Below, in pieces: positions 2,120 through 27,544 of a stretch of 64,000 bases of DNA; the first letter of the stretch is position 1; the number at the start of each line of letters is the position of its first letter. The DNA comes from a virus (taxonomy: Duplodnaviria > Caudoviricetes). The stretch spans positions 64,001 through 128,000 of the IMG/VR virus record IMGVR_UViG_2896054739_000007; one strand, 5' to 3'. The notes beneath the pieces were generated by a model, which saw nothing but the letters and a program-made list of their open reading frames with translations, did no database searches and had not been told where the DNA came from. The position numbers and the translations under genes are program-made.

Positions 2120-2442
2120 TATAACACCCCTAATTATGTTATGCAATACATTTCTTATTATAACCAAAATCACTTGAAATAGTTATTTTATGTCTAAACT
2201 GGTATTATATCGATAACCTTATCACAATGAATCTTTACTGATTCATCGCCAATATCCAAGTGAAAATCGTCTCCAAATGCTCCAACGCTTGTAAGAACTC
2301 CTTCAAAAATACCTTTGTCCGTCTTAACTTTCAATTTTTCTCCTTCAGAAATATGAAATTCAGAACCACCTTTTTTAAATTTATATTCCTGATATATTTT
2401 TAATGTATCCATAAATCCTCCTTTGAAATTTCACTTTCATAT

Positions 2443-2661
2443 CTATAAAAACAATCCAATTATTTGTAGTATACTCCCCATAATGATCAGAATTGTCCCT
2501 ATAATTACTTTCTTTTTATCCTTTTTAAAATCATCTGATAAGTTAGAAAACCATTCGCATGTCCCATAATATTTTTCTTTAGTAGAAAGAATAGACCATA
2601 AGCTAAATACTGTTCCAATCATAACTAAAATAATTCCTATTACATTCAAAATCTTATCCAT
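2443..2661 (-). CDS. Small two-TM membrane protein
   Basis: Two hydrophobic stretches; AAAGGAG RBS before ATG 2661. Confidence 0.6.
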   Translation of the reverse strand: MDKILNVIGIILVMIGTVFSLWSILSTKEKYYGTCEWFSNLSDDFKKDKKKVIIGTILIIMGSILQIIGLFL

Positions 2662-2702
2662 TAGTACGCTCCTTTCACCTATTGAAACAGAACATTTATG
2701 TC

Positions 2703-3437
2703 CTACATAAAATATTTGCACTTATCAAAATAAAACTGCTGCTCTTTTTCAAAAAGTGTAATCAATTTATCCAGACTTTTTTCTTCTCTATATTCTTTCA
2801 ATGCCTCCAGATACTCATTTCTATTTGCATCTTCAATCACAACCGGCACAACACCATTCTTCAAGCACTCCCTAAAGAGAATTAATCTTCCCGTCCTACC
2901 GTTCCCGTCTTGGAAAGGATGAATGCTTTCGTATCTTGCATGAAACTCAGCTAATACAGAAATATTTATCGTCTGACCATAATACCATTCCATTAGTAAA
3001 TACATTTCTTGGGCAACATCTTCTGGTCTTACAGTTTGATACATTCCAATCATATTAGGACGCTGCTTATAATCACCGATTGCATATCCGTTAGCACGAT
3101 CCTCAAACACTCCAGACTTCAACTCATAATGAAATTTCTTTATTAGTTCCTGTGTCAATGACTCATCCAAAGTGTCCAGCATTTTATTAAACATCAGAAA
3201 ATGACCATTCATCTCCTCAACATCTTTTGCTCTATAATAATCATCTGATTTCGGCAAAGTTCCATTATCAAACAAAGAAGCTGTTTGCTCCTCAGTAAGT
3301 GTGCTACCTTCAATCTTATTTGAGTTATAAGCAAGTAGACGCTGTGTGTATGCATATACACCCGATCTGTCAAATCGCTCTCTTTCAATTTCAAATCGTT
3401 CTAGAAGAAACTTTAAGAATTCTTTATTGTTACTCAT
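2703..3437 (-). CDS. fic: Fic-domain protein (class II-like)
   Basis: HPFQDGNGRTGR active site; N-terminal SNKIEG inhibitory motif. Confidence 0.92.
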   Translation of the reverse strand: MSNNKEFLKFLLERFEIERERFDRSGVYAYTQRLLAYNSNKIEGSTLTEEQTASLFDNGTLPKSDDYYRAKDVEEMNGHFLMFNKMLDTLDESLTQELIKKFHYELKSGVFEDRANGYAIGDYKQRPNMIGMYQTVRPEDVAQEMYLLMEWYYGQTINISVLAEFHARYESIHPFQDGNGRTGRLILFRECLKNGVVPVVIEDANRNEYLEALKEYREEKSLDKLITLFEKEQQFYFDKCKYFM

Positions 3438-3802
3438 ATCACACCTCTTCTCTGTCCATAAACCATCAAACTAGAATTTCAATGCTCTACTCTCCTTGAT
3501 GTCTTAATTTTCGCATATATTTCTCTACACTAATCTTTATATCTACATACGCATTTAGTCTTTCCTTCGCTCGTTCCAATTCAATTTCCGCTGAATCTAT
3601 CAAACATTGTTCATCTTCAAAATAACAACTTCGTTTCGTATCTTGAAAATTCTGTTCAGCTTTTTCAACAAGATTTTTTTGTTCTTTGCATTTTTTATCT
3701 AACCATTTGAATACATCTTTTACGCCTTCAGATTTCAACAATATCCCTCCTAAATACCCTTGAATCCAGCCTTTTATTGACTTTTTCACATAAAAAGATC
3801 TA

Positions 3803-4426
3803 TTATCTGTTATTCTCATAATAAAATGCTCTTAGTATAAGCACATATCTCATTTTAAAGAATCTAACATACCTATTATAAAAAATATATGTCATAAGGC
3901 AACTTATGATAGTCATAAAAAAATATGTACTATTTATGCAAATTAAAAACTTTATCACTGAAATTAAAAAAATCAAAACAAAATATATTGATAAACTTCT
4001 TGCCATACCTCCAATTGATTGTTGCTTATCTATTTCTATTGTGGTTTTATTTGATTTTATATAACATGCTTTACAATAATTATATATTTCTGAAACAGAA
4101 TCGTCCGTAAAGACAATATCCAGTTTATCACAAACGGTATTTGTAATAAAATCTATTTCTTTTTGTGATAAAGAAATATGTAAATCATTTGATACTTTAA
4201 ACACTGGTTTTAATAATTTTCTTCCACTAAATTTTGAACCTAATTCTTGAAAAACCATTCCAATAAAATAACTGATTATTAAAAATTGTAATGAATCATC
4301 AGCATCTATTTTAATATGAAAATTAAAAATCGGAAAAATTTTAATAGTAATAAGCAATATAATCATTCCGGTAAGCAATAGTACCATTAGATCATATATT
4401 CCTAACTTCTCTAATATTTTATCCAT
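3803..4426 (-). CDS. Multi-TM hypothetical membrane protein
   Basis: About four hydrophobic segments, very AT-rich. Confidence 0.6.
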   Translation of the reverse strand: MDKILEKLGIYDLMVLLLTGMIILLITIKIFPIFNFHIKIDADDSLQFLIISYFIGMVFQELGSKFSGRKLLKPVFKVSNDLHISLSQKEIDFITNTVCDKLDIVFTDDSVSEIYNYCKACYIKSNKTTIEIDKQQSIGGMARSLSIYFVLIFLISVIKFLICINSTYFFMTIISCLMTYIFYNRYVRFFKMRYVLILRAFYYENNR

Positions 4427-4450
4427 TCTAACACCTATAAAAACAGCATT

Positions 4451-4720
4451 TTATTTCATCTTATAATCTTTATACCACATTTTATACAATTCCTTATCCG
4501 AATACTTTCTATTTCCATTATACTTAGACCACCCCTTCTTATAGGAGTTAAAGGAATTTAAAAATTTATAGTCACAAATATCATAAGAGCAAAATAATTT
4601 TTTATATGCCCTTCCAGACGGAATGTCCAAATAATTTCTACGCAAATGTCTATTTGCACGCTTTTTCATTCCACGGTTATAATCCTTGCAACATGGAATT
4701 TTCTTATAACTTCTACTCAT
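4451..4720 (-). CDS. Basic hypothetical phage protein
   Basis: MSRSYKKIPCCKD..YKKLFCSYDICDY; bounded by palindromic sites. Confidence 0.65.
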   Translation of the reverse strand: MSRSYKKIPCCKDYNRGMKKRANRHLRRNYLDIPSGRAYKKLFCSYDICDYKFLNSFNSYKKGWSKYNGNRKYSDKELYKMWYKDYKMK

Positions 4721-4756
4721 AACATTTCCCTCTTAAAAGCAACAATTCATTGCAAA

Positions 4757-5859: not shown

Positions 5860-7181
5860 AATCTATATCCCTCTTCTCTTGTATATTCGATAAAAACCGG
5901 ATTTCAAGACTATCATTTACCAATTACAAACATCTCTATAAAGCAATCTATGAGAATTGCACATTTTTTCTTCGTTAAGAGAATCTAATTCCTTTTGACA
6001 ATCTTCATTCCAAGTTCCAGAAATTTTCTTATTAAGTAAAATTCTTAATTTGCTTTCGATTTCCAATTCAGTATCGTAATCTGTCTTATCATTATTTGGA
6101 AATTCCATATTAAACGCATATGTCATTTTAGAAACCAACACGCCCATGCATTCGGTACATAAATTTATTTTTAATGGATTCAAATTTCCTATAGTAATTG
6201 AATATATTTTTCTATATTCATCTTGCTTCTCGTTACAATTTAAACACGAAGTATATTTACCATTATCTAATCCAACATCAAGCATGATATCCTCCAATCT
6301 AAAAATTTACTGTTGCAAATTTATATCATAAATATTTTCCACAACATTTAGCAATGAGTATCCGTACCCACCAAGCAATCCTTCCCACTCACAATATTCA
6401 TTAAACACATCCTGTTTCGACATACTCATAATATCTCCATCTTGTGATGTATCACCAGGTTCTAATCCTCTACGCTGTCTAAGAGCCTCCATGACTTTCT
6501 TATTATATGTCTTCTGTGCTGGTTCCAACCAATTCACACTGACATGTTTCTGTTCCATTTCTCCATCTTCTGTTTCAAAATTCACATCACATTCTTCCTC
6601 GGATTCCCATGCATATCCAATAAAGAATCCATATTGCTTCAAATTTTTGTGATAAACTCTATCTCCATGTTTGAATTTCTTATCCATACTTACCTCCACT
6701 TTCATCCACACTTTATAACAATCTTATCAAATATTCTCTGCTCTAACTTATCAAAATCAACTGATAAAATTCCATCATTTATCATCTCATTTATTTCATC
6801 CAATCTTACAAATACTCCATTTGGATTAGTCACACTCATACAAAATTCGCTTGGATATAATTTATTCTCATTCCTGATTGTTTGCTACCATAGTTGGCTT
6901 CTAAATGGATTATTCATATAACTTCCTCCAAACGATTTTTCAAATCATTCTGAACCTGTCCAAGTGTCTCAATTCTTGATTCTATTTTTGCGTATTCAAT
7001 GCCGCACAAATAAACTTCTTTTGCTGCATCATTTTCTAACTCAACAAATTTATCTTCGATCAGCTTTACACATCTATCAATTTCTTCCTGAATCTCAGTT
7101 ATGTATTCTTTTACTTTTTCTCTCATATCTGGCATAATACTTCTCTCCTAATGAAAATCGAATTTCATTATCAATCATTCT

Positions 7182-7889: not shown

Positions 7890-7964
7890 ATTTATCTCCT
7901 CAGTTTGAATTCGTTCATTATAACAAATATTATCACCATACCCTTGAAATCAAATTTTCAATTA

Positions 7965-8657
7965 CTAATCCAATTTAATATCAACTGGATTTTCCAATTT
8001 CAAAAATTCGTCCTTATGTTCTACCAAAGCAGCACTAGCAATGGAATTAATCTTATTTTGGCAGAAAGATTCTATTTCTCCTTTTGCTTCCATTACTGTC
8101 TTGTCCATTTGTTCATTAAACTGATCTGCAATAAAATCCATATTACACCCGATTTCCATACTCAGTTTAGACAATTTACTGAGAATTTCTTGCTTGTCTG
8201 CTTTTGTAAGTGTTTTCTTTTGATTAAATAGTTCTGTTACATCTTTAATAATTTGCTGTGACTCCATAGTTGCTTCTTTTCTTTTTTCTTTAAACTCATC
8301 AGCAAATTGTTCTCTCTTACTAACAAAATCACAGTCTGGTATACGTCCATCTCTTTCTGTCCAACGCACAGTAACTGGAACGCCACTTCCCATATTCATT
8401 GATGTAATAGCTTCAGCAAATTGTAAATAACTCATTTCTACTTCTACAATCTTTTTGTCACCATAAATAGAATCATAATGCAACCCCCTTGTAATATCTG
8501 CATGATATAAAGTCATTGCAATTGTGTCCCTATGTTCTATACTACTTCCAAATAGCGGTGTCGTTCCTCCTGTCCTTCTACTAAACGCCAATGTTCCATA
8601 ACTCGGATGACTTGTTTTTGTTCCAAATTGCGTATTTTCTACTTTATAATCACTCAT
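7965..8657 (-). CDS. Hypothetical phage protein
   Basis: 230-aa ORF; HPSYG..VEMSYLQFAEAITSMNMGSGVPVT. Confidence 0.7.
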   Translation of the reverse strand: MSDYKVENTQFGTKTSHPSYGTLAFSRRTGGTTPLFGSSIEHRDTIAMTLYHADITRGLHYDSIYGDKKIVEVEMSYLQFAEAITSMNMGSGVPVTVRWTERDGRIPDCDFVSKREQFADEFKEKRKEATMESQQIIKDVTELFNQKKTLTKADKQEILSKLSKLSMEIGCNMDFIADQFNEQMDKTVMEAKGEIESFCQNKINSIASAALVEHKDEFLKLENPVDIKLD

Positions 8658-8862
8658 AATATTTTCATCTCTTTCTCCAATAAAATCAATCTTTCATTTT
8701 CTGATTTATTTATACACTAATATCTCTAATGCTTTCTCCAATTCTCATCTTCCCACTTTTATATTACTACTATCTGCTAACGCTTCACGCTTTAGCTTCT
8801 CTTAATTTATCATATGCCTCTTTACGAGTCATAATCTTCCTTCCATATTATACCATATATTA

Positions 8863-9858
8863 TTACTCAAGTGTTAATTTTTCTCTAATACCATATCCTC
8901 CATCTACATAAGTATTTACCGTAATATTAACATTTTTATGTCCTAATTGTTGCTGTGCAAAAGCTGCTCCATATTTTTCCGTTGTTACAGTTCCGTACCA
9001 ATGTCTAATCATATGCGGTGTAAGTTTTTTGCAACTATATACCTTAAATATTGCTCTCACATCGGACTCTTGCATTCTTTTCCCTGTCTTATTTAAAAAA
9101 ACTGCTTTATTGTCTACAATGTTTATTGTATTTCTGACTTCAAACCATTCCAAGAATGCGTTTTTTGTAGTATTATTAAGCAAAACATTTCTTCCTTTTT
9201 CAATGTGATACACCCCTTTCCCCATCACTCTGATATGTGGAGACTTTTCAATTTCACTTCCATCTAAAAATAAAGAAGAAAATTCCAATTCTACAAGTTC
9301 ACATTCTCTCAAACCTGTATTCATCAGAATTGTAAGAATAAGAAGATTCCTCTCCCTTACAAAACTATCATTCTTCTTTTTCTGAATAATATTTCTTCTC
9401 ATTTCATCCAAATCTTCTTTTGATGGCATTTTAACATAGCGATTATATCCAGAATCTAAACCTTCATATGCTACATCTTCAACAATATTACAATTTACTG
9501 GGACACTGGGAGAATTAACCATAGATCTCCAAAAACTTCTAAAGATATTCTTCCTTGTATTTAATGTGGTCGGTGATATACCTTCACTTTGTTTTTCTTC
9601 TAAATACATATTTATATAAGCCGATTCTATATATGTCATATCGGACTGCACAATCTCTGATATACTATTTTTCTGAATTATCCTTTTATCAATCAGCCAT
9701 TGTAATAAATTCTTAATTACAGAATAATAATTCAATGCACCTAATTTACTTTTCCTATTTAAAAGATAAAATTGTATAAACATTGGTATATTATCTTCAT
9801 TCATTTTTCTCTGTAACTTTTCTGAATTCTTCTTTTGAACTTCATCTTTATAACACAT
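8863..9858 (-). CDS. Tyrosine recombinase (Xer/integrase family)
   Basis: TGLRECEL, MGKG, TPHMIRH, LGH..TVNTY: catalytic R-K-H-R-H-Y present. Confidence 0.93.
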   Translation of the reverse strand: MCYKDEVQKKNSEKLQRKMNEDNIPMFIQFYLLNRKSKLGALNYYSVIKNLLQWLIDKRIIQKNSISEIVQSDMTYIESAYINMYLEEKQSEGISPTTLNTRKNIFRSFWRSMVNSPSVPVNCNIVEDVAYEGLDSGYNRYVKMPSKEDLDEMRRNIIQKKKNDSFVRERNLLILTILMNTGLRECELVELEFSSLFLDGSEIEKSPHIRVMGKGVYHIEKGRNVLLNNTTKNAFLEWFEVRNTINIVDNKAVFLNKTGKRMQESDVRAIFKVYSCKKLTPHMIRHWYGTVTTEKYGAAFAQQQLGHKNVNITVNTYVDGGYGIREKLTLE

Positions 9859-9965
9859 AATAAATCCATCCTTTCTAAAAGTTTTACCTCTACATTATAT
9901 TTCTACATTAAAAAAGAAAAAAGCACTAACGATTTACGCCAATGCCCTTAATCAACTTACAACTA

Positions 9966-10220
9966 TCAATAATGATATCTACAAGTAAACACTATTAAAT
10001 TGCTTCCTTCTACTTGATATACTAACCTATGTTCATCCGTTATTCTTCTACTCCACTTTCTAGCCAAATCATATTTTAGTGGTTCTGGTTTCCCCACACC
10101 TTCAAAAGGATTTCTCTTTATATCTTTGATCAATTCGTTGATTCTCTTGACAATCTTTTTATCCATCTTTTGCCAGTAAAGATAATCTTCCCAAGCATTT
10201 TCTGTGAAAGACACATTCAT
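9966..10220 (-). CDS. yoeB: Txe/YoeB toxin
   Basis: AWEDYLYWQ..PFEGVGKPEPLKY..WSRRITDEHRLVY..CRYHY. Confidence 0.95.
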   Translation of the reverse strand: MNVSFTENAWEDYLYWQKMDKKIVKRINELIKDIKRNPFEGVGKPEPLKYDLARKWSRRITDEHRLVYQVEGSNLIVFTCRYHY

Positions 10221-10223
10221 AAA

Positions 10224-10475
10224 CTAATCCTCCACATCAAAATTTACAAGTTTTCCATCTTCAGCTTGCTTGATAGACTCTTTCAACCACTCATAATTCG
10301 CTTTACTTTCCCTTATATGAAGATTTTCCATCAGATTATCATACTGTGCCTGAGACATAAGCACAACATTTTCATCGTTTTTTCTCGTAATTATTGCGAT
10401 ATCAGAATCATGTACAACCCGATCGCAAACTTCTTTGAAGTTATTCCTTACATTTGAAAAATTTGTTGCTATCAT
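10224..10475 (-). CDS. yefM: Phd/YefM antitoxin
   Basis: NFSNVRNNFK..IITRKNDENVVLMS; upstream of yoeB. Confidence 0.93.
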   Translation of the reverse strand: MIATNFSNVRNNFKEVCDRVVHDSDIAIITRKNDENVVLMSQAQYDNLMENLHIRESKANYEWLKESIKQAEDGKLVNFDVED

Positions 10476-10497
10476 ACAATCACTCTCCTTTGAATAT

Positions 10498-10550
10498 AGT
10501 ATATGTCATATTCATAGTTTTGTCAATATTTTGTACAATATTCTGTGCAA
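10498..10550 (-). promoter_or_regulatory. sigmaA promoter of yefM-yoeB with TGTACA operator-like palindrome
   Basis: TTGACA(10526-21)-17-TATACT(10503-498); TTGTACAA at 10531. Confidence 0.75.
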
Positions 10551-11203
10551 CTATGTATCACAAGTTGAAACGATGATTTCAAAGCTATATTACCAATACT
10601 TTGATGAATGAATACTTATTTTGTTCATATGTTTTGTGACTTCCATATACTCATCCATTCTTCCATATGTGACTTCATTCATAAAAGAATATAACCATCC
10701 GAATTTTGCAAGTGCAATTTCTGTATTGTGTTTTCTTTCTTCTCTGATCTTTTGTTGACGCTCTAATTCTGTTTTCTGTTCCACATCTGTAAGACTCTTG
10801 AACCATTCACTATATAAGTGCTTCCCATACCATTTATCCAATTTGTATATGGAATTTTCCTCCAAGGAATAAACCATTTATACAATGCATACCAAGCCAT
10901 AAATCAAGCACCTTCTTTCAATTTTTAATCATTTCAAAGTCATTTAACTATATTTAATTATCATTATATTCCAAACAAACATCCATAGATTTTTCTCCGT
11001 CTACACAACAAAAACAATGACTACAAGTTCCACCATTAATTTGACTTTCTTTACAAGTTCTACATTTACAATAAACATCATCATTAGCACAAAAAGCATC
11101 CATATTCATATTCTTCCTCCAATCATTTTATATAAACTACTTCTCTTTTTCGTGAAGAAGTATAAAGCACGATCCAACACATATACAGCGTGGAATATAC
11201 AAA

Positions 11204-12241
11204 TTAACTTGCTAAAGTCTTTACACTTCCAAAATATTTATCATAATCCTTCTTAATTTCTTCCACCCTCTTCATAACAGCAGAATTCTTCCCTGTTCCA
11301 CGTCCGGCAGCATCATTATACGCCTTAGAAGTTGTGGCAGATTTCTTTCCACTAAAGAAATTTACAAACCACTCCATCATCTGTTTGTCTGAATAACCTT
11401 CATTAAGCGACTCTGCAACAATCGGCACAATACTAATCATATGTGTTCTGGCATAAATCCTTTTTGCAATTTTCTTATCCTCTATCATGGTATGAATATT
11501 GTAAATACGATCAAATACTTCTGTTAAAAGAAGTTCATCATCTTTTGTAATATCTGCCTTTCTCATATATGGACGAATCCACTTGGCATCCGTAGAAACT
11601 TCCTTATCATTAAGAATTGCATGTGCTTTTGCCACCATATCTTCATTCACATGTCCATCTAAAGCTGTCTGACTTAAAGCATCAGCAAACAGCTTATGCT
11701 TCCCAAGATTGATAATCTGTTCCTTTGATTTCGCCTTTACACGGTTCATCGTAGCAGCGTTTAATGCCTGACCATTATTCAGATTATAGAATGTATCCGC
11801 CTGTTCTTCCTGATCCGCATTGTCCGTATAGCAAATTGCGAATGAATACTCCTTAATAGCGTTCTGGAAACATTCAGGAAGATCACTAAATTTGTATCCA
11901 TTGACATCAATTTCTTCTGTTTCTCCATCATCATTTACCACTGTAAATTCCTCAAGTCCACTCAATTCAAACTCATCTTTCAGGAATTTAATAATAGTTA
12001 ATGTTCTCTGCTTCCCATCTTCTCCCTCGTAAACATCTTCTACTTTATTGAAATACAGAGGAGGAACATGTCTATCCAATATCAAAGAGCGAATCAAAGC
12101 AGATTTCTTATCATTATCTTTCCACACATAACCCCTTTGAATATCAATGTTAAAATTCACTGTTCCGTCTTCCACTAATTCAACAAGTTTCCGTGCCGTC
12201 CACTCTGTTCTTCCACGATCCGCACCTTTAATTATCTTCAT
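11204..12241 (-). CDS. DUF262/GmrSD-N ParB-like domain protein
   Basis: IQRGYVW, EDGKQRT, FYNLNNG motifs. Confidence 0.8.
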   Translation of the reverse strand: MKIIKGADRGRTEWTARKLVELVEDGTVNFNIDIQRGYVWKDNDKKSALIRSLILDRHVPPLYFNKVEDVYEGEDGKQRTLTIIKFLKDEFELSGLEEFTVVNDDGETEEIDVNGYKFSDLPECFQNAIKEYSFAICYTDNADQEEQADTFYNLNNGQALNAATMNRVKAKSKEQIINLGKHKLFADALSQTALDGHVNEDMVAKAHAILNDKEVSTDAKWIRPYMRKADITKDDELLLTEVFDRIYNIHTMIEDKKIAKRIYARTHMISIVPIVAESLNEGYSDKQMMEWFVNFFSGKKSATTSKAYNDAAGRGTGKNSAVMKRVEEIKKDYDKYFGSVKTLAS

Positions 12242-12264: not shown

Positions 12265-13194
12265 TCATTTTGAGATTTTAACTTTCTTCCCATTCTCTAC
12301 ATATATCTTCTTCACTATTCCGAGTCCATCACACACTAAATCTTCCACATAAAGTACACATGATACTCTGTGGTCACGTTTCGGATACTTTGCTTTTGCT
12401 TCCGCACTGAATAACGCAGGGTCAATCTGCCTTAATTCCTTTGACAAATACCTATGTATTTCTTTCCTATCATTCGGATGGGCAATCCAAACCTCCCTTA
12501 ATGCCCTCATTACAAATGTTGCATATCCGTTTGTCTCTTTATTCCATCCAGCATTATCAATAATAGAAAAAATAAAGTCCAGGCACTTCTCACCATGAAC
12601 TTTTACGATTGAATATGTATCTGTATAACTTCCAAGAACCGATTCTTCTCTATTTCCTTTTGTAGACACAAACTTGATTCCATATTTGTTCAGAAGTTTA
12701 TCTAAGGAAACGGCAGCGTTGTCTCCAATGATTACCCTTGAAAGATGCTTTTCAAGTGGCTTCACATTTTCCACTTCTGAATCCTGTCCTATGAAGTATT
12801 CAGCTTCAAATTTTAATCGCTCATCTAAGTCTTCAGGAGCGTCCATAAGGATAATTGCATTGAGACGATCCATACCCTTCTCAGGAGCCACAAGACACCT
12901 CCCCTGACCATCTACAACCGCAAATCTGTATTCTTCTGGATGTGGTACTAAGATAATAGGTGTCAACTTTCGTTCATCCCATTTATTCTTTAACCGATTC
13001 AGATGCTTATGTGTTCTCATGCCCTGATACCTAACATCTACAAAACAACGAGATAAGGGAACCACGGCACTACCTGTAATCACTCTCTGATTCTTTCCCT
13101 TCCCAACAGTCATAAGCGGCTTAATATTTGCCACTATATCATTATACTGTTCCATTTTCCTTGTTTCCTCATTCATTGCCACTACTGCACTCAT
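12265..13194 (-). CDS. ParB-like (DUF6551-type) protein
   Basis: VDVRYQ..VVDGQGR; start after GGAGG RBS. Confidence 0.65.
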   Translation of the reverse strand: MSAVVAMNEETRKMEQYNDIVANIKPLMTVGKGKNQRVITGSAVVPLSRCFVDVRYQGMRTHKHLNRLKNKWDERKLTPIILVPHPEEYRFAVVDGQGRCLVAPEKGMDRLNAIILMDAPEDLDERLKFEAEYFIGQDSEVENVKPLEKHLSRVIIGDNAAVSLDKLLNKYGIKFVSTKGNREESVLGSYTDTYSIVKVHGEKCLDFIFSIIDNAGWNKETNGYATFVMRALREVWIAHPNDRKEIHRYLSKELRQIDPALFSAEAKAKYPKRDHRVSCVLYVEDLVCDGLGIVKKIYVENGKKVKISK

Positions 13195-14822
13195 ACTGAA
13201 ACCTCCTTGAATATGTATTTTTTGTATAATAAAAAGCATCTGGATTTTTATTTCCAAATGCTTTACTACCTTAATGTATTTAGTTAAATATCACATTGTC
13301 GTGCTGATTATACAACTAATGCCAATGATTTTTGCAAATTCCTTATTTCTTTTTGAAGTCCTTCAGCAATACATTTTTTTATTTCTCCCAAATAATCATC
13401 TATGTTCTGTTCATTAGTCAAGAAGATAAAATATTCATATGAATTTGAACTCCAATGTTGCATTTTCCATTTTTCAAAGCAATCAAATGGGATATGATAT
13501 CCAAAGCCGAACGTTTTAAACCCGTCTTCATAAACTGCGTCTACTTCACATTCGCTTTTTCTTAAATCTTCTTTTCCTGCTTCGACCTCATATACATATT
13601 TATAAATTTTCCCACCATTTTCTCTCCATTTGATAAATTGTTCTTTATCCATTTATCCTCATCCCTTCCTTAAATATCTAATTTCATTGCCTATTTAATA
13701 TAACTCATCAAGTTTTAACATTGTATATGTAAAACTAAACTCATCAGCCTTGAAAGAATCTTTCTTCCTTATGGCTAAATATTTCTTCTTTCCCTCTTCC
13801 ATCTTTGTCTTTGATGAAAAGATGCCACACTCTTCAAATTCTTCGTCATATATGTGTTTTACTTTCAATAAATACAAATCCATACCAAACCCTCCAATCT
13901 ATACATTACAAGGTAAATAATGCCCTTCTATATGATATTCTCCATCTTCCAAAACCAATGAAGTATTTTTCTTTACCCATTCTACTAATTCCTCTGGACT
14001 CAGAAAATACTTTGCTACCGTAAAATCATTACACACCGGAATACCATCGCCAGCAACTTCTTTTCCCTCAACAATATCTTCATTATCATTATTTAGAATA
14101 ATAAAAAATCTCCATTCGCATTTCATGCAATCACCTCACACCACATCCAGCAGCATACTTCAAAATATCATCATTTGTTGGATATGTATCTTCCCATCCC
14201 AAAACAGTATAACTTTCACCGTTCTTAATGTCATTTATAATTCCTAACAATTCTTCTTTATCCAACTTATATAAACATTTCCATGTAATCATATTATATC
14301 TGCCTCCACTTGAAACTTAGATTTTATCCACTATCTCTTTTACTTTGCTTTTTCAAACAAACACATTATTTTTGATTCAAGTTCTATGCCGTCTGGAGCA
14401 TAGGAAGGTTTTTCATATAGTTTATGGATAAAACCTCTTTTCTGAAATTCCATCATAACTTTTACAGAACTTGTACTTGTTGTGTCTGTAAACAATACAT
14501 TCATATTATGTTTAATTGCATATTCTAAACATCCTTCTACATTAAAAATTGTATCTAAAATTAATAGCTCTTGATCATCCTTATCAAATTTAGGTATATA
14601 TTTTCCCATATTATTATCCACACCCTTCCCATAAATCTATTATTTCATTCCCATATTTCTGTGTTATCTGTTAAGTTGGCTTCCCAATTCCAACTATGAC
14701 CAGTTTTTTGCTTTACAGTATTAATAGCTTCATTTTCTGTTTCTGCTTTTACAACATAACAATAACTTGAACAATCCTCTTGATATTTCGGTATATCTTT
14801 AACTACATATAATCTTTTCATT

Positions 14823-15149: not shown

Positions 15150-16072
15150 ATAACTTCCCTCCATTAAACAATCCTTTCAAGACTTAAATCTCTTTGACAC
15201 TAACAATTTTAGAATTCTTCATGCAACGTGTTCCATCTCCAATATTCATCAAATAATACTCTTCATCTTCATTAAACATTTTAATAGCTCCGCTATCTCT
15301 GTTTTCACTATCTGAAATTTTTAGTCCTTTAACAAATTCTTCTGTTGTAATATGCTTCCCATCTGCAGTCTCTACATTTACAACTTCTTTTTCGTCAACT
15401 TCTACCTCAAGCACAATTTGTAATTTCTTCATCTAATTTTCCTCCATTCTTTCCATCAAATAATCCTTTTAAGATACTTTTGTTTTGTAACCGCCTTCTG
15501 GTGTAAAACTATTCCAATCAACTTTAGTTGCCCATTTATCTTGATGATTGCTGCCGTAAATTTTATGCCATTCCTCTAAACTCATTACATGAGCGTTATT
15601 CTCGATCCTAACAGCCACCATCTGTTCTCCATGACATTCAAACTCTTTTATCACTTCATATTTGTCATTCATACTTATGTCCTCCATATTATATCATTTA
15701 TCCACTATAAAAGCCACCAGATTTTATTTTCCAGTGGCTTTCTATTCGCTTCCATATTCACTTTTTAACATCGTAACCGCCACGATTAGCTTTACTCATC
15801 ACTTCATTCTTAGATTTTCCCATTGCTAAATCATGGCTCATTGCACCGTAATCTGTTTTATATCCTTCTGGTGGCATCCGATTGTCAAATTTAACATTCG
15901 TAATGATTCCAGGTAAAAAGCATACACAAAAGATAACAGCCAATCCAATTAAAGTTTCCATATATTTTCCTTTCTGCCTACTATGTAGGACTTTGATCTA
16001 TTTGTTTATATTTTCATTATACTATTCTATGTGTCCAATTAAAAGAACTTTTCATCAAAGGAAAGGTACATT

Positions 16073-16804
16073 TTAAGACCAATTTATCAAAGCATCATAT
16101 ACTTTTTGAGGTATAATTTCTTTGTACTCTTCCGCAACTTGTTTTATAGCTTCCAATTTGGCTTTATAATGTGCCGTTTCAGCATCTTTTATAGAATCAA
16201 ACTTACCAAGATTTTTTCCATTATAGACTGCCGAAAATGTTCCTTTACTTTCTTTCCTAACACCATTAGGTAATCCACTTTTATTAGGTCTTGTCATGAA
16301 TAACATATTTATTCTCTGTGGAACCAGCAAACACGTTTGCGGAGAATATATTTTGTTTTCTGGATATAATATATCCTTATCCAAATGCAGTCTTCCATCT
16401 ACTTCATATTTATTGTTGTTATACCATTCTGCAAATTTCTGAAAACACTTCCATTCATCGCATACTGTAGCAATGCCATAGTAGGATTTATTATCTTCTT
16501 TATATTTTTCAGAATAGCAGCGTTCCAACATACCTCTCCATACTCTATGCTCTTGTGTTCTTTTCTTTGAAGTACCTGTACTATGGTTGCCTTCTCCTAA
16601 ATATCCTACTCCAAATACTGATCTGTCATACGGATTTAATGCTTGGTGGCGTTTGAAATTGGTATATGTTGTATGCAATCTATAATGATGCTCATCTTGA
16701 AATTCAACAGTTACATCATTATAACCATCATACTTAACAATTTTCATTTCAGTTCCAAAACGATTATTTTCAATTTCTCCCACTCTTGAATTTATATTGT
16801 TCAA
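16073..16804 (-). CDS. Putative homing endonuclease (HNH-like with AP2-like C-terminus)
   Basis: VWRGMLERCY, VCDEW..FAEW, LDKDIL, YSPQTCLLVPQRIN, LGKFDSIKDA. Confidence 0.8.
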   Translation of the reverse strand: MNNINSRVGEIENNRFGTEMKIVKYDGYNDVTVEFQDEHHYRLHTTYTNFKRHQALNPYDRSVFGVGYLGEGNHSTGTSKKRTQEHRVWRGMLERCYSEKYKEDNKSYYGIATVCDEWKCFQKFAEWYNNNKYEVDGRLHLDKDILYPENKIYSPQTCLLVPQRINMLFMTRPNKSGLPNGVRKESKGTFSAVYNGKNLGKFDSIKDAETAHYKAKLEAIKQVAEEYKEIIPQKVYDALINWS

Positions 16805-17848
16805 TTTTTCACCACCCTCTACTAACCATAAACTTTTTCTTCAAAAATCTTATTATGATGTTCTAACACCTCTTGTATCTCATAAATTTTGCCAAGTATC
16901 TTATCATATTCTGCACTCAGTAAATCAGCAGCTTGCTTTTTAACTGCTTCTTGATAATTTCTCTGTAAATTTTCAATGAATCTTTCTACATTTATCTCTT
17001 GATCATTGAACAGAATTTTCACATCATATAATCCATTTTCATCTGCTTGGATATCTATTACATCCCTATCTTGTCCTATTGCTTCACACACCATAAACAT
17101 TGCCATTTTATTATTGATAACATCTATTTTTGCCATATCTTCACCTCATTTCTTCCTTGAAATGCGAATTTTAAGAGAATATAAATTTTTCCAACATATT
17201 CTCCATTTCTTCTTCCAATTCATCATCTATACTACAATTATGATCACATTCTGGATTGCAACATACACATCTAATTTCTGGATCATGTACACATTGTCCC
17301 GTAGTATTGATATTTTTCCTATAACTTTTTCCATTCTTTTCTATAATTTTAAATGCCACACTACACCTCCAAATCTCCATCCAAATACAATCTTTCCATT
17401 TCCATATATTCTTCATGTGCTGCTTCTATTGTTTCCTTCTCTATAATATCTAAGATTCTTTCATCATCTATTTTATTCAATTTTTTATTTCCTCCAATCA
17501 CTCATTTTCTTCTTTAATTTTCGACACAAACAATTCTCTGTCATACCTATAATCTTCTCCATCATAAGGAAGATTATAAACTACATATATGATAACAATC
17601 ACAAGCTAAACAATTCCTGTCTTCATGCTTACAAAAATCATGTATATTATCAAAAGCATCTGTTCTACTTGCTGTTATATATGTTCCCTTTAAGTTATAT
17701 ACAACAACTCCCAGCTCCTTTATATCCAAGATATATTTTTGACCTTCCACCAAGCCAAAATAAGCTGCTCCTTTATAGTTTGCCGTTCCAATTTTCTTTT
17801 CCATATTTTCCTCCAATATACCAAGTTGAAATACGAGTTTCATTACCT

Positions 17849-18301: not shown

Positions 18302-20341
18302 TCTTTTATTCCTCTCTTTCCTTTATTTTTCGATGAAATTCCGACTTCATTGCCTATTATTCTTCGACAACACCAGTATCAATAATTTCTTTTACAATGT
18401 GTTCATATGTGAAATGATACGCTTCGCCTCTTTTAATTCTGATTTTCCTTCCATTTTTCATTTCAATAATAGTTTTTTCCTTTTTGCAATGACCGGCACA
18501 AATTTCAAATTCACCCTCATATCCATATGAATTGATTTCCTGAATATCATCACTTCCACTTGATACGGTGTTCAATCGCCTATATATCCTCTTAAAGTAA
18601 ATCGGACAGCATAAAATATTCCCTGTAAATCCTCCCCAATCCGCATCATTAGACCACTCTTTGATATTTTTAACAATATTCCCATTGCCGATCAGGATTT
18701 CAAAAACCCTTCTAAAAGGATTATTAATATCATGCAAATATTTCCATGCTGACATTTTAGGTTCGTTATAGTAAGCATCAAAACTAACTTCCTGTAAAGG
18801 GCTCCTGAAAAATAGTCCTTTTTCTGTCCCCTCCTCTGTACTGATAACATATCCTTTATAATTCACAACTCTGTTTTCCATAGTTTTTCTCCTTCCTAAC
18901 TTCTTGAAATCCTGATTTTCAGTCTTTAATCAACTAACTCAAAACCAAAATGACAAAATCCAGTTCTATCTGATAAATAATCAGATACCTCTTCTTCATC
19001 TGTCATATCCCCTGGAATTTCCATTTCTGTCGGTAACTGCTTTAACAATTCCATATGCCCATCTGTGTCCCACTTAATATTTATTGCTTTCATTAAATTT
19101 CCTCCGTTTCTAACTTGAATTTGTGTTTTCATTGCACTATTTCTTTACAATGTTCCAAAAGACCTTCAATAGTTCCTCCATATTCACTATTTAACCTATT
19201 TTCAAAAAATATGTAGCTAATAATCTCATAATCTAACATAGGAATATCAATATTATCGGATTCCATTTCATCAATAAAATCCATTATAGTATCATATTCC
19301 CTATTAATTATTTTTCCATTTTCATTCTTGTATTTAATCCATAAATCCTTCATATATAAAACCTCCACTTCTCCACTTAAAATCATTATTTCCTTGCCAT
19401 TTGTTACTTAAAATTGAGGAATATCTTTTTCATCTTCTCTCCATCCTATCGGCGTAAATTCCAATGCAGTTAAAAAGGCTTGATATACAGTGTTTAACCA
19501 TTCAATCCTTGTATTATCATTACCCTTTATCTTGTCAAACACACCCATATCAATAAATCGCTGCCGTTCTTCATTAGTCAACTTTTCCCACGTCCATGAT
19601 TTTTTAATAACATTTTGGAAGTAATTTTCTACCACATTTGATTTTTTCATAATCACACCTCCATATACTTTTCCGCAAAATAAATATCATTTGCAATAGC
19701 AACTGTCTGTCTTGATTTAAGTTTCCGAAAATACTCTGTCTTTCCATCTGCCACAACAACATCGTTTCCACATATTTTAATATCTACATTCGGATTTTTA
19801 ATACCTCTCATAACTTCTCCTTCCATGAATCCATTGTTCTATTGATATTCTGTTTTCCATTCAAGCCGATTTTTTCCCTCAATCCAATCTCTTATATATT
19901 CAAGTGGCATTTTTTCAATTCTCTTGATAAAATCCGCTGCTTTTATCATCAAATACCCTGACATTTCATTCCATTTGATAGCATCATCTGCATATTTCCT
20001 TAACCATGACGAATACGCTTTATGCTCTTTGAAACTGTCAATTTTTTCATTAAACAATTTGTATCTTTGTTTTGCCCATTCGTTTCTAGCCTGTACTTTT
20101 ACTTTCATATCAATTACCATCCTTTCTACTCTTTATTTCTCCATTTATTCTGTGCTTATATACACTATAGGACACATCATTTTTAATATGTTCTATACTG
20201 GATACAAACCGTATCACATCCTGTTGACCGCTTATCCTTCGCAATACTGCACTCGCTTCACCATCAACCCAAAAGAGGTTTATAAGAGTTCTTTTGGTAC
20301 TCTTCCGAAAACTTATTTATAATTCCGTTTTCGTTATATTT

Positions 20342-21442: not shown

Positions 21443-21797
21443 TAGTGTTTCCTCCTTATATATGGATTATACACACTTTATACGTATATGTCAACAATAA
21501 TTTATACTTATTTCATGCGCATAAAACGATTCTTTCATTGCTTTACATATTCTCAACAAAATTTTCGATTTCTTCCAACGAAAATATGTAATCTGTTATT
21601 GGTTTTCTATCAAATTGATCCATTGGGAAAATAGCGTATTTACTTCCATCAAACTTAAATATCAACCCTTTATACGCTAATTTCTCTTGTAATCGCCTCA
21701 AACGTTCAATCACATCATTCTCGCAATACATATGGAATGTGTTAAAATAGTTGCCTACTGCTTTTCTTTCTTCCTTTGTCATGTATATATTTCCTCC

Positions 21798-22028: not shown

Positions 22029-22040
22029 GCTCTGCCCTCC

Positions 22041-22742: not shown

Positions 22743-24250
22743 TTGTCACTTGCTCTATACTTCCCTTTCTATGATGCTTATTTGTCTTATTTAAGGACTT
22801 AATGCAACGCACATACATATTTGCATATGCGCTGATTTAAGGCTTTAAATGGGCTTGTATACGGTTTAAACACCAATGATTTTTTGATTAAATCCAAAAA
22901 GATTTATAAGAAAATCCGTATTGAAATTCAGTAAAAGACGGAAGCCACATTTATTAAAATATCTAAGTGTAATTCCAAACGCTTCCCAAGAAGTCCCTCC
23001 AATTTTAAAACGCCATCCATTATCAAACTTTCTAAATCCATGCTTTTTCATGCTCATTCCTCCATTGTTGAAGCAGTAGTTTCATTGATGTGTCAAATTC
23101 CATTTAAGACACCATGCCTTATATTCTTCATCTGTAATTATTCCATTTTGATAATCATGCTTTATCTCTATTGCATCTAAACACTCTTGAGATAATGTAT
23201 AACTTTTTACTCTTCCTGCAATTTTCCTATTCGCTGCCAAATAACATTGCATGGATAATTCTGCTATAATTTTATCTATTGCATTTACATTCTTTTTCAT
23301 TTTTACGATCTCCATATTTATATTTTATCACTTTCCGATAACCAATGAAATACACGATTTATTCTTTCCAAAATTTCATAATCGTTTCATTATCTTCTAA
23401 TACTAAACCGCACTTATAGCCGTGTCTATCTGCAATCTCAATCAATTCTCTGTTTGTCTTGCTATTTTCATATGGAATCATATAGAAAGAATTTGCTGTT
23501 ACTTTATGTAGTTCCACGCAATTTAACGGATAACATTCCGTTTGCCTAGTTTCGTCATTATAGCAACAGGCGCAATTATTAATCACCATGCAAATATCAA
23601 AAATAATGTCCTTGTGTGCCTTTTTACGTTTCTGTTCTGCATATGCTTTAAAATCCATGTTATCCCCCCAGTTTTTAAAATGTCATAACTTTTTCTTGTG
23701 TCATCATCAAAAATATTCCAAGTGGCAACGCAACAAGTGAAAATGTTGCATCTCCATCCAGCACAAACGGCGTTACAATTCCAATAGTTGCCATTATTGC
23801 ACCTGATAACTGTTGTTTCATATAATAAAAGCGTTCTGTCCTCTGTTTGATTCTCCACTTTTCTTCCCGGCGGTTATATTCTTTGAGCCATTCTTCATAT
23901 GTGTAAACTGTTTCTATTGCTTCAGATCCGATATTGTATATTATCATTATTCTTTTTCCTCTTTGTTTGCTGCCTACTTTGTTTTATATTTTCATTACTT
24001 TAATTACATACTATTCATTAATATTAAAGTAATCATCTATCAAATATTGAAGTTTGTCACATGTATTTAAAATTTCTCTTGTTTGATCGTTTTCAAAAAC
24101 TTCTTCTGAAGCTTTATTACATAAATCTGAAATCTGTTTTAATATATTTTTCATTGTTTCAGTCATTGTCTTTCCCCCTAATCTAAATTTTCTAATAGTT
24201 CCATTGCTATTTTAATTTCCATTTTAGTTATCTCCTTTCAAATTACAATT

Positions 24251-24475
24251 TTATTGTGCCGTTCTTTTATTCCACATTTCAATTACTGTATGTTTGTTTT
24301 GTGCATATCCAGGATCAATCATTGCCATACATCCAGTACAAAAAATTCTAAATCTTTCACCTGCTCTATGTTCGTATTTATCAATAACAATCTCTTTACT
24401 TCCACAAAATGGGCAAGGTTTAGTTTTTTCAGGATTACATTTTTCAATATCTCCACATGTAAAATCATTTTTCAT
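24251..24475 (-). CDS. Lar-family restriction alleviation protein
   Basis: KPCPFCGS..IFCTGC..WNKR. Confidence 0.8.
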   Translation of the reverse strand: MKNDFTCGDIEKCNPEKTKPCPFCGSKEIVIDKYEHRAGERFRIFCTGCMAMIDPGYAQNKHTVIEMWNKRTAQ

Positions 24476-25024: not shown

Positions 25025-25148
25025 TTCTGCATCTAGTGAATTTTTTCTATCAACTGAGGAGTTCACCATCTCCCGGCTGTTTTATACTTGCTATGCCGTG
25101 TTAGCGCAAGTTCAATGTACTGCAACAATTAGTTGTTTTCTTTGTAAA

Positions 25149-25198
25149 TGCCCAAACGGGAAATCGAATCCCGTGTATGTTGCTTGCTCCTGCTGGGT
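25149..25198 (-). ncRNA. tRNA-like minihelix (acceptor stem + T arm only)
   Basis: CCCAG..CGGGA TTCGATT TCCCG TTTGGGCA. Confidence 0.5.
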
Positions 25199-25571: not shown

Positions 25572-25760
25572 CTATTCATTCCTTGCCATCTTATCTTTTA
25601 TTGCTTGCCGTATGAATCCAGCTTTTGTATGACCTTTTTCTTTACAATAATTATCAAGTGTTTCCGCTTCTTCGTTTGGCATTGATAATTTTACTTGTGT
25701 ATAATTTTTTTCTGTCCACTTCTTATTAGCTCTTTTCTTTGCGTCTGATACTGGTGAAAT
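25572..25760 (-). CDS. Small RHH-like regulator (probable ATT/ATA start)
   Basis: AKKRANKKW..QVKLSMP..GFIRQAIKDKM; TAGTAC repeats around the adjacent promoter at ~25441-25469. Confidence 0.7.
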   Translation of the reverse strand: MSPVSDAKKRANKKWTEKNYTQVKLSMPNEEAETLDNYCKEKGHTKAGFIRQAIKDKMARNE

Positions 25761-25786
25761 TATTATCACTTCCTTTTCTATATAAT

Positions 25787-25885
25787 AAAAGCACAATTAT
25801 TTTTGGCTGGGCGGTGTATCCAGCATCTCAGGTACTCTTGCGAGTGTGTCGGGAACCATTTCCGACCTCAAAAATAATCATGCTT
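25787..25885 (-). ncRNA. Putative small structured RNA downstream of PBECR nuclease
   Basis: Own promoter TTGACA(25942-37)-17-TATATT(25919-14); long closing stem AAGCATGATTATTTTTG/CAAAAATAATTGTGCTT enclosing several hairpins. Confidence 0.65.
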
Positions 25886-25919
25886 ATTACTATCATATTC
25901 TCTTTGTACCTATAATATA

Positions 25920-26315
25920 CTATGTATTTTCGGCATTGTCAATCTTAAATTCCTTTATTCTGCCACTATATAAACGCCTTTGAATCTTTGATTCCTGTAT
26001 ATCGTGCATAGTAGACACATACAAATAATCATTATCTTTATCTAATTTAATTCCTATCATCACATTATCACGGTATCTTTTTATTAGTTCTATGGATTGT
26101 GTGCCGTTTTCATTTGGATTTATGCCGATATAATCAGGATTATCAATAATATCTGGTATATAGTCGATATATTTCAAACATTTTGCATGTTTACTTTTCA
26201 GCATATGAGCAGGTAAACCTTTTGATCTGTATATATCTTTAGGTTCTATATTTATTCCTAAGATGGAATTAAATTTACTTTTGTATTTCCCTACTATAAT
26301 TAATTTGTCCGACAT
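25920..26315 (-). CDS. PBECR (barnase/EndoU/colicin/RelE-like) nuclease-fold protein
   Basis: GLPAHM..KH..IPDIIDNPDYIGINP..IELIKRY..IGIKLD..YLYVST. Confidence 0.7.
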   Translation of the reverse strand: MSDKLIIVGKYKSKFNSILGINIEPKDIYRSKGLPAHMLKSKHAKCLKYIDYIPDIIDNPDYIGINPNENGTQSIELIKRYRDNVMIGIKLDKDNDYLYVSTMHDIQESKIQRRLYSGRIKEFKIDNAENT

Positions 26316-26467
26316 TTTGTTATATTCCTTTTGTTTAATAGGAAAATTATAACATATATTTTATAGATTATCTACACAAAATTGACAATTGGGGAGGGTA
26401 CTAATTCCAGAATATTCCAACGCCATATCAATTTTCTGTTGTATAGTAATCTTTATCGGCCCCCTAT

Positions 26468-26677
26468 CTAAACTGGCATAGAAAACAAATGTGGCTCTGG
26501 TATTTCTTCCCCGTCTTCTAGTGCCGTTTCAATCCATTCTTGAATAATAATTTCTGCATTTTCTACTGTCTCAGTTGGTGTTTCTCCGTCTGCCATACAT
26601 CCAGGAAGATCGGGAACTGACACAATATAGGCTTGATCTTCCTCAGACCATGACATAACCATAGAATATTTGTACAT
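26468..26677 (-). CDS. hicB: Short HicB antitoxin
   Basis: WSEEDQAYIVSVPDLPGCMADGET..WIETALEDGEEIPEP. Confidence 0.9.
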   Translation of the reverse strand: MYKYSMVMSWSEEDQAYIVSVPDLPGCMADGETPTETVENAEIIIQEWIETALEDGEEIPEPHLFSMPV

Positions 26678-26679
26678 AT

Positions 26680-26883
26680 TTACACCACCATAATATCAGG
26701 ATCTGGAATTGTTTGCCCATCTTCTAAAGCCGTTTCAATCCATAATTCCTTTGCTATTTCAATTTCTTTCAACGCTTCTTCTTTTGTTTCCCCGTGTGCC
26801 ATACATCCTTGTAACTCAGGAACGCTTGCAACATATATTTTATCTTGTGGATCATATTGCATAAAAATAGAATACTCTGCCAT
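26680..26883 (-). CDS. hicB: Short HicB antitoxin (paralog)
   Basis: YVASVPELQGCMAHGETKEEA..WIETALEDGQTIPDP. Confidence 0.9.
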   Translation of the reverse strand: MAEYSIFMQYDPQDKIYVASVPELQGCMAHGETKEEALKEIEIAKELWIETALEDGQTIPDPDIMVV

Positions 26884-26895
26884 CTTAAAACCTCC

Positions 26896-27135
26896 TTATA
26901 AGCCGTGTTTATTAATAATATTCCTTAATTGTCTAACCTGATACCCTTTAGCCTTTGAATTGGCATTCTGTATTGTCATACGTTCATTTATTCCATTATG
27001 ATAATATGACTTGTGGGAGCCTTTCTGTCCTTTAAAAGAAAAACCTAAATCAACAATAAGATTGCAGAAATCACTAAAATTTATATTGTTGTCGGATTTT
27101 CCGCTTATTACATCATTATATGTCTTTTGGTTCAT
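26896..27135 (-). CDS. hicA: HicA toxin
   Basis: INFSDFCNLIVDLGF..KGSH..IQ..KAKGYQVRQ. Confidence 0.9.
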   Translation of the reverse strand: MNQKTYNDVISGKSDNNINFSDFCNLIVDLGFSFKGQKGSHKSYYHNGINERMTIQNANSKAKGYQVRQLRNIINKHGL

Positions 27136-27544
27136 TCTGATTCACTTCCTTTGTGTATATTAATTATATCAGATTTCCCGATTTTTTCAAGCATTATCAA
27201 AAACCGTTCATATCTAATTGAAATAATTGTTTCATTGGCACACGAAAATAAATTCATTGCCAAACATATCCCATTTTGAAAACCTTCTTTGCAATAAATC
27301 AACGGGAATATTATTTGACATTCCCTGAAATAATGTACCTTTCTTTTCGTCAAATTCGCATCCTGAAGGCAATTCATAATTTTCAGAATCAACTATCGCA
27401 CAATATATTCCACTTTCTTCATTTTCAACAAACATTGATAAAAAGTCTTTAATTAACATGATAAATTCCTCCTGATCTTATTTTCTACATTTTTATGAAA
27501 TGAGCTTGCAACTTTTGACGGATGCAAGCCCTTGTATTGCTTTT

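Follow-up and report, generated by a model that had tools for sequence, protein, structure and literature searches.

How phages shuffle their genes and still keep working genomes is an old open question, usually answered by rare illegitimate recombination with subsequent selection. The present analysis concerns a 64,000-nucleotide stretch of a prophage (IMG/VR record IMGVR_UViG_2896054739_000007, positions 64,001 to 128,000; the whole stretch is called the window below) and a 16-bp interrupted palindrome, TGAAA-N6-TTTCA, that recurs between its genes and appears to mark the points at which related phages exchange them. The nearest published systems are the elements called PeSLs (PMC2839356) and the dif modules of Acinetobacter (PMC6449649). 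PeSLs, found in T4-type phages, are likewise short conserved intergenic motifs that flank small accessory genes in hyperplastic regions and act as points of insertion, deletion and replacement between related phages. They differ in that they are larger, contain a sigma-70 promoter and a terminator stem-loop, and have copies that are alike and recombine by homology, with the formation of mini-circles (PMC2839356, PMC4122927). The sites described here have 16 bp without promoter or terminator, carry private centres in genome order, and would be exchanged between equivalent positions. The pdif/dif modules of Acinetobacter plasmids likewise comprise many Xer-type sites with a 6-bp centre, flanking adaptive modules in different contexts, but their arms are 11 bp long and are read by host XerC/XerD, and the modules move between plasmids (PMC6449649). 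The phage sites, in contrast, have 5–6 bp of conserved arm, and their comparison points to slot swapping in a fixed order.

The preliminary description of the window likened the array to an integron, and there is indeed a resemblance in the co-oriented, mostly promoterless small open reading frames (ORFs) that each end at or in a recombination-site-like palindrome. Integron attC sites, however, are imperfect inverted repeats of ~60–140 bp with GTTRRRY core sites, whereas the phage sites have 16 bp. An integron captures cassettes at one attI behind a common promoter, whereas the phage array has no attI and no common promoter, its private centres are ordered over 90 kb, and its exchange would take place in situ. 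A search for attC-like structure of 60–140 bp found none, conservation being limited to 16 bp plus 1–3 flanking bases, with arms TGAAA/TTTCA. The two tyrosine recombinases of the window score 15.7 and 30.4 bits against the IntI model TIGR02249, for which the cutoff is 265. With no IntI, no attC-like structure and no single capture site, the integron analogy was given up.

A second comparison lies within the same phage family. SPBRE is a repeated intergenic element of SPbeta, a 15-bp motif present at ~10 promoters and bound by MrpR (YopR), a repressor with a recombinase fold (PMC10516654); a repeated intergenic element is common ground, a recombinase-fold reader would be, and an operator of this type had been put forward as the alternative to a recombination site. 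The yorE, yorZ and yosX promoters, the three MrpR-bound SPBRE promoters that were compared, share TAGACAAA…ATATGTATA and not the junction palindrome, and SPBRE stands at ~10 promoters in SPbeta against 34 exact copies of the junction palindrome in that phage. An MrpR/SPBRE operator was accordingly rejected as the identity of the site.

A palindrome at the gene junctions of the leftward arm

The window corresponds to positions 91646–155645 of contig C112 (190 kb) of G000. From ~27 kb to its end this contig is a low-GC element (~31% GC, against 42.6% for the host genome), a prophage of ~160 kb. Genes run leftward at contig 27–120 kb, an arm of ~90 kb that takes in the window below ~28 kb, and rightward beyond. 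The leftward arm has a replication block (DnaB-like helicase, primase, RecJ, DnaE, RecD2-like helicase, NAD-dependent ligase and NrdD) and, at its far end, a tyrosine integrase of 452 amino acids (aa); antirepressors, the large terminase and structural genes are found in the rightward arm. Several proteins of the prophage match SPbeta YonO, YonF, YonJ, YorI, YorJ, YorK and YorL, which indicates a distant SPbeta-like phage.

Exact copies of TGAAA-N6-TTTCA number 8 in the window against 0.74 expected, a count that none of 100 shuffles reached. Seven lie within 2175–27234, the limits originally given to the array. One of these, at 12739–12754 (minus strand), is an intragenic copy in ORF 12265–13257 and not a junction, and lies within a block that is homologous on both sides in the related phage G001; for junction copies, the earlier count of six perfect sites therefore holds. 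When one arm mismatch was allowed, 18 of the 20 copies in that range were intergenic although the range is 83% coding (binomial estimate ~1e-12). When all 5-mer palindromes with spacers of 0–12 were scanned without bias, this motif led the list for the prophage (18 copies where 1.7 are expected) and for the closest relative as well (11 against 1.5), with the arm spacing strictly 6. The arms are degenerate, T[G/A][A/G]AA ... TTT[C/T]A, and with up to two mismatches ~68 of 175 junctions at contig 27–120 kb have a site. The palindrome at gene junctions is thus real and the array larger than was first stated, since the sites span the whole ~90-kb leftward arm. Elsewhere in the host genome, 4.5 Mb contain 21 exact copies.

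On the coding (minus) strand the order is upstream ORF, site, Shine-Dalgarno sequence and start codon, the last placed 8–34 nt past the site. Often the first triplet of the site is the stop codon of the upstream gene itself. All twelve overlaps of this kind in the preliminary description proved correct: on the coding strand the triplet is TGA, TAA or TAG and ends a listed ORF, which limits the variation of the left arm to these three codons.

This arrangement would suit an expression signal, a palindrome bound by a phage regulator or acting in the mRNA, with breakpoints coinciding only because viable recombinants break between genes. The constant position between stop codon and ribosome-binding site, the restriction of the left arm to three stop codons and the fact that the site fills most of a short intergenic gap all fit such a signal. 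Against it, most sites are without promoter or terminator, SPBRE, the operator known from SPbeta, has another motif, and within the genome no compensatory arm changes are seen: counts at site positions 2/15 were G/C 42, A/C 34, G/T 28 and A/T 7, with no positive association. In sister lineages with TAAAA arms, described below, the stems consist of A-T pairs only, which makes an RNA hairpin implausible. The uncompensated arm variants and these A-T-only stems together make a folded hairpin of RNA or DNA unlikely.

Two specific identities for the site were rejected. An RNA hairpin or translational coupling would have to tolerate left arms TAAAA, TAGAA or TGAAT pairing with TTTCA uncompensated. 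For a promoter or terminator, promoter-like matches numbered 119 against 114 in shuffles, and a strong promoter is present at few junctions only; terminator-like hairpins were scarce, and in the window range no site has one.

Shared centres and differing contents in related phages

Relatives that have this replication block and this array were drawn from IMG/VR: G001 (159 kb), G308, and G309, G310, G311 and G312, which are more distant or fragmentary. G307 is a complete phage that shares the terminase. A scan of genome contigs and a family-wide genome search with the terminase found no close relatives, and megablast of the array against the phage collection gave a sole match of 65 bp, window 23709–23773, which agrees at 94% identity with a stretch without annotation in four Enterocloster phages.

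Synteny between the prophage (G000) and G001 goes together with extreme mosaicism: no more than ~40 kb aligns at the nucleotide level, and a protein homolog in G001 exists for just 45 of the 176 arm genes; the replication proteins are 87–99% identical. Some 45 sites of G000 recur in G001 with an identical 6-nt centre and in the same order, mostly with both 40-nt flanks unrelated. When sites were called more strictly and compared with a null of shuffled cores, the collinear chain of identical centres comprised 56 sites between G000 and G001 (null mean 14, maximum 18), 37 of them with neither flank homologous, and 59 sites between G000 and G308 (null maximum 19), 40 of them with neither flank homologous. 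Collinear centres in G309–G312 were likewise above their nulls. Over the whole prophage, 34 of 55 and 31 of 58 intervals between consecutive common centres share <15% of their nucleotide sequence, and their lengths differ. In the window ~28 junction sites are common to at least one relative, and several slots hold 3 different contents in 3 phages or 4 in 4. Sites are present at 2 of 19 junctions that are conserved between G000 and G001, as against 21 of 44 junctions where homology breaks.

Read from these alignments, the picture is one of slot-wise exchange between related phages, in which each junction has its own centre and keeps it in order, and not one of capture into a single site. The free capture of cassettes that was first envisaged is not supported, given a private centre at each junction and the same order across phages. 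Identical ordered centres amid unrelated flanks are also left unexplained if the palindrome is an expression signal only.

The position of the exchange within the site could be narrowed down. Many blocks of homology to G001 begin within a few bases of a site's first base, or extend as far as the last base of a site or slightly beyond it. In what follows all sites are on the minus strand and centres are given on the coding strand. Homology to G001 begins at the base just before the first base of site 13671–13686 (centre ttagat), within three bases of the first base of 10566–10581 (tcatcg, perfect), and about three bases before 3761–3776 (ggctgg). Blocks end at 7945–7960 (atttga, perfect; the orthologous G001 centre is acttga), just past the last base of 5891–5906 (tccggt, common to 4 relatives) and a few bases past 3466–3481 (ttctag). 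Averaged over pairs that share the right flank only, identity steps from background to ~100% at position −1/0; in pairs that share the left flank only, it drops at positions 13–14. The arms segregate in the same manner when all phage sequences in hand are considered. Among 89 pairs (28 centres) with only the right flank shared, 87 had identical right arms and 44 identical left arms; where the left flank alone was shared (93 pairs, 26 centres), identical left arms were seen in 80 and identical right arms in 48. An arm thus goes with the flank beside it, which places the exchange point between the arms. Gain and loss breakpoints between relatives had been named at the outset as a check on the sites; by homology blocks, identity profiles and arm segregation alike they map inside the 16 bp, in agreement with the reading of the sites as cassette boundaries. 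It is highly probable, on this comparative evidence, that the sites are crossover points. A site that stays with either neighbour is not accounted for by an expression signal, and we consider that explanation, with its merits in layout, improbable.

The remaining sites of the window illustrate how contents vary between fixed centres. At 27219–27234 (caatta, perfect) the TGA is the stop of ORF 27232–27459, and G001 has the same centre in collinear position with both flanks unrelated. The TAA of 24238–24253 (ttgtaa, common to G001) is the stop of ORF 24251–24475. Site 23346–23361 (cgtgta, TAA stop) is common to G001 and G308, as is the next, 23069–23084 (ctactg, TGA stop), and the slot from one to the other has 3 contents in 3 phages. 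Site 21522–21537 (gaatcg, common to G308) is followed by a consensus sigma-70-like promoter at 21494–21466. The copy at 19826–19841 is degenerate, TAGAA-caatgg-ATTCA with TAG as the stop, and its G001 ortholog is perfect. Then come 19378–19393 (taatga, common to G308), 19116–19131 (acacaa, TGA stop; G308 and G310), 18905–18920 (tcagga; G001, G308 and G310) and 18334–18349 (tcggaa; G001 and G310), the slots on either side of the last having 3 contents in 3 phages. Sites 17827–17842 (ctcgta, perfect) and 17158–17173 (ttcgca, TAA stop) are both common to G001, G308 and G310 and enclose 4 contents in 4 phages.

Further along, 16060–16075 (tgtacc, TAA stop; G308, G309 and G310) has a second, weak copy at 16039–16054. 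Site 15456–15471 (ggatta, TAA stop) is common to G001, G308 and G309, and its neighbour 15164–15179 (ggattg) is one base different in the centre; ggattg is also the centre that precedes the conserved 230-aa gene in another phage, L227. Sites 14632–14647 (taatag, TGA stop; G308, G309 and G310) and 14311–14326 (tctaag; G309) follow. Site 8681–8696 (gattga; G001, G308, G309 and G310) lies upstream of the conserved 230-aa gene of the prophage itself. The centre atttga of site 7945–7960 recurs at contig 84404. Beyond 7152–7167 (ttcgat, perfect; G308 and G309), the slot from 5891 to 4734 (tccggt to tgttgc) has 4 contents in 4 phages. It is closed by 4734–4749 (tgttgc; G001, G308 and G310), after which come 4438–4453 (tgctgt, TAA stop; G001, G308 and G309), 2424–2439 (gtgaaa, perfect), which is followed directly by AAGGAGG and ATG, and 2175–2190 (taacta; G308 and G310).

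Sites that flank the same genes were described at first as having similar centres. An excess does exist, but it is modest: 7 adjacent pairs have centres with at most two differences against ~3 expected (p ~0.02–0.04). The signal is weak; it would be compatible with an occasional insertion at a site, after which the two copies of the centre diverged.

At contig ~43140–43200, immediately left of a site with centre taggac and after the RecD2-like helicase gene, there is a conserved inverted repeat, gtctatatatag … ctatatatagac, which is present in G000, G001, G308, G309, G310 and G312. Five different right flanks follow the taggac site, and in G312 the next address, gatagg, stands directly after the hairpin. 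The site at contig 35127 (agatta) has just its left flank in common with G001.

Proposed address-coded exchange and its possible machinery

In the mechanism that we propose, the palindromes would be fixed crossover points that split the early/accessory arm into ~60 ordered slots. Each site would combine constant arms (a stop codon and AA on the left, TTTYA on the right) with a private 6-bp centre that serves as an address. In a cell that contains two related phages, only copies with identical centres would recombine productively inside the site. The content of a slot, one gene or several with ribosome-binding site, ORF and stop, would be replaced by what the partner has there, with no change to the order of genes, to the stop codon upstream or to the start of translation downstream. 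The exchange itself may be a conservative site-specific recombination by a tyrosine (Xer-like) recombinase, encoded by phage or host, that needs identical 6-bp overlaps. At dif, lox and FRT, strand exchange needs identical overlaps. Taken as a whole, the statement that ordered, address-coded crossover sites are exchanged by a tyrosine recombinase has a somewhat better than even chance of being correct; the Xer-like mechanism with its need for identical centres, considered on its own, is tentative and falls slightly short of that mark.

In engineered cassette exchange with heterospecific lox or FRT sites, 13-bp arms and 8-bp spacers are used together with a known enzyme. The phage array is alike in that the arms are identical, the spacer would pick the partner, and the segment between two spacers would be exchanged with order and orientation kept; it would differ in being natural and in having ~60 spacers. 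That SPbeta-like phages possess a natural genome-scale scaffold for cassette exchange, with dozens of heterospecific sites of common arms and unique 6-bp overlaps and with a dedicated site-specific enzyme, is possible but doubtful. If so, co-infecting or resident relatives would trade accessory and defence-related genes by slot with gene order undisturbed, and the sites would be the 'linker sequences' postulated by the modular theory of phage evolution, provided with addresses. Should an enzyme with spacer-coded specificity be at work, it would also offer a natural tool with which cassettes could be exchanged in order at multiple sites.

The sites have the layout of dif, two inverted arms around a 6-bp central region, with 5–6 bp conserved in each arm against 11 in dif (PMC5357621). 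The arm of difH is AGTTATGAAAA and those of difSL are TTTCCGAAAA and TTTTCTTGAAA; their inner parts (…TGAAAA in difH, …CGAAAA / TTTTC… in difSL) resemble the arms of the phage site (PMC5357621). Xer-type enzymes that read GAAA(A)/(T)TTTC beside the central region therefore exist, which is a resemblance and not a test. The best dif-like 28-mer of the host assembly, TCTTCCAAGAA-AACATA-TTATGTGTACG (contig C34, minus index 63376), agrees with Bacillus subtilis dif at 21 of 28 positions and may be the host dif site. Mimicry of host dif was not supported by this candidate, whose inner arms are AAGAA/TTATG and unlike TGAAA/TTTCA.

Other lineages carry the same kind of site with different arms. In G307 the top palindrome is TAAAA-N6-TTTTA (16 observed, 2.2 expected), in the same kind of position and with the same spacing. 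A large lineage in which DnaE is ~63% identical has a TAAAA-type palindrome and conserved addresses as well; its intervals around DnaE are homologous and hence uninformative on swapping. In SPbeta, TAAAA-N6-TTTTA occurs 22 times in the 50-kb early arm against 0.85 expected, the 34 exact copies being a genome-wide count. The cultured Bacillus phages SPbeta and Goe12 have 14 collinear common centres (null mean 5.4, maximum 8), 7 of them with both flanks unrelated, and several slots with unrelated contents. The joint change of both arms between lineages with the 6-bp spacing kept argues for a symmetric protein reader.

Several observations weigh against strict address-coded exchange by a recombinase. 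The conserved 230-aa gene (7965–8657) is found behind centres gattga, tccggt, ccgggt, ggattg, ccaagt and others, depending on the phage, and a move between the centres tttccg and cccacg is seen for one cassette, where homology begins inside the centre. The same gene behind different centres means that exchange is not strictly address-bound. A two-gene module, 14294–13891, has moved by way of joints at ribosome-binding sites. With stop codon and ribosome-binding site so close to the site on either side, the breakpoints that survive would also be driven into this gap by selection for functional genes. Conserved arms of 5–6 bp are short for a recombinase binding site. Finally, the recombinase encoded within the array is not conserved across the motif-bearing phages.

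That recombinase (8863–9858, minus strand, 331 aa, Pfam Phage_integrase) is cargo of the slot tcatcg to gattga. It is intact, as the preliminary description held, with the full catalytic set R183, H282, R285, H286, H307 and Y317. XerH is its closest solved relative, and XerC and XerS are its top family matches, all far below the family cutoffs. It is 86% identical in G001 and 33% in G308, was not found in G307 (complete), G309 or G310, and has no convincing ortholog in SPbeta, where there is at most a weak match to YomM. Its variability among relatives and the lack of a clear SPbeta ortholog give it the appearance of cargo. The proposal that it is the enzyme of the system is consequently unsupported, three motif-bearing phages having yielded no copy of it.

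The lack of a conserved recombinase would be expected if no site-specific enzyme were needed. The identical sites of 16–21 bp would then be the sole sequence shared between unrelated cassettes and would act as linkers in short-homology recombination by an annealing module of the YorF/YorG/YorK type, the arms being conserved for a separate reason such as a bound protein or gene punctuation. The replication block, including homologs of YorF (similar to single-stranded DNA-binding protein), YorG and YorK (RecJ-like), is conserved in all motif-bearing phages that were compared, and the module is among the few gene sets of which this is true. SPbeta yorG is annotated as a Sak4-like annealing protein. 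Short-homology annealing stays the main rival because of these conserved homologs, and crossovers anywhere within 16 bp of identity would give the same segregation of arms. It does not account for the retention, at ~60 junctions per genome, of one pair of palindromic arms always 6 bp apart, nor for the joint change of both arms between lineages. Sixteen bp is very short for such an exchange, and ribosome-binding sites, which are equally shared, act as joints only occasionally. In sum we regard annealing as unlikely, though well ahead of the other alternatives.

The order in which contents are exchanged could also be preserved by unique overhangs, if a nuclease cut in the centre and the site-specific overhangs were religated in order by the NAD-dependent ligase of the phage. 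An interrupted palindrome with a free centre is the layout recognised by enzymes of the SfiI/BglI type, and the phage does have its own ligase. The ligase, however, belongs to the common replication genes, a nuclease candidate was not identified, and repeated self-cutting at ~60 places would be costly. We know of no precedent for such a process and consider it very improbable, more so than an expression signal.

With the sites read as crossover points, a whole phage family has built-in joints that supply the left gene with its stop codon, spare the ribosome-binding site of the right gene and bear a code of position by which the order of genes is maintained. The family, to which the model phage SPbeta belongs, is abundant in metagenomes of the gut. 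The presence of the same sites in SPbeta and cultured relatives makes the idea testable by ordinary genetics in Bacillus subtilis. In a preprint on SPbeta/phi3Ts hybrids, 15 of 16 laboratory junctions were in homologous regions; one 'non-homologous' junction adjoins yosA, near the SPbeta site at 116415, onto which its coordinate could not be mapped exactly. Searches of the papers available in full text found no description of the junction palindrome, and the SPbeta papers searched by term do not mention one.

Cargo of the slots and other genes

The contents of the slots are heterogeneous, as originally noted, and include Fic, YefM/YoeB, MazF-like, HicB-like, PBECR3 nuclease-like and GmrSD-N proteins, a zinc-finger protein and the tyrosine recombinase. 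With toxin-antitoxin pairs, Fic and nuclease-like proteins among the swapped cargo, the joints may set the pace at which genes for competition and counter-defence are exchanged. The cassette opened by site 10566–10581 holds a promoter, the YefM/YoeB pair and the recombinase. The YefM-type antitoxin (10224–10475) and YoeB-type toxin (9966–10220), both on the minus strand, occupy the same slot as the recombinase, tcatcg to gattga. In the part of this slot at 9919–10581 a consensus-like promoter (10526–10498) is followed by YefM/YoeB and a terminator-like hairpin (9949–9919), and then by the recombinase, which is the architecture of a self-contained unit.

The 230-aa protein (7965–8657, minus strand) was considered as a candidate reader of the sites. 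It is conserved at 44–94% in 64 large IMG/VR phage contigs and has no match in Pfam, NCBIfam, PDB sequences or Foldseek/PDB, and no SPbeta homolog. Its structural model has an N-terminal beta domain and long helices (predicted local distance difference test, pLDDT, 67; medium confidence). The second recombinase of the window (52208–53161, plus strand, 317 aa), an Xer-like tyrosine recombinase, lies in the rightward arm, and its matches in the relatives are only 21–28% identical.

Also in the rightward direction, an 836-aa protein at 41486–43996 (plus strand) without Pfam match aligns by tblastn with the SPbeta yonO region (24% over 472 aa, E 3e-20). It is probably the counterpart of YonO, the single-subunit RNA polymerase of SPbeta. 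A 424-aa TnpB/Cas12f-like protein with Cas12f1-like TNB and OrfB_IS605 domains is encoded in the array outside the window (contig 73069–74343, minus strand). Two paralogous proteins of the GmrSD-N/DUF262 type (phrog_2598), at window 11204–12241 and contig 87675–89129, occupy different slots.

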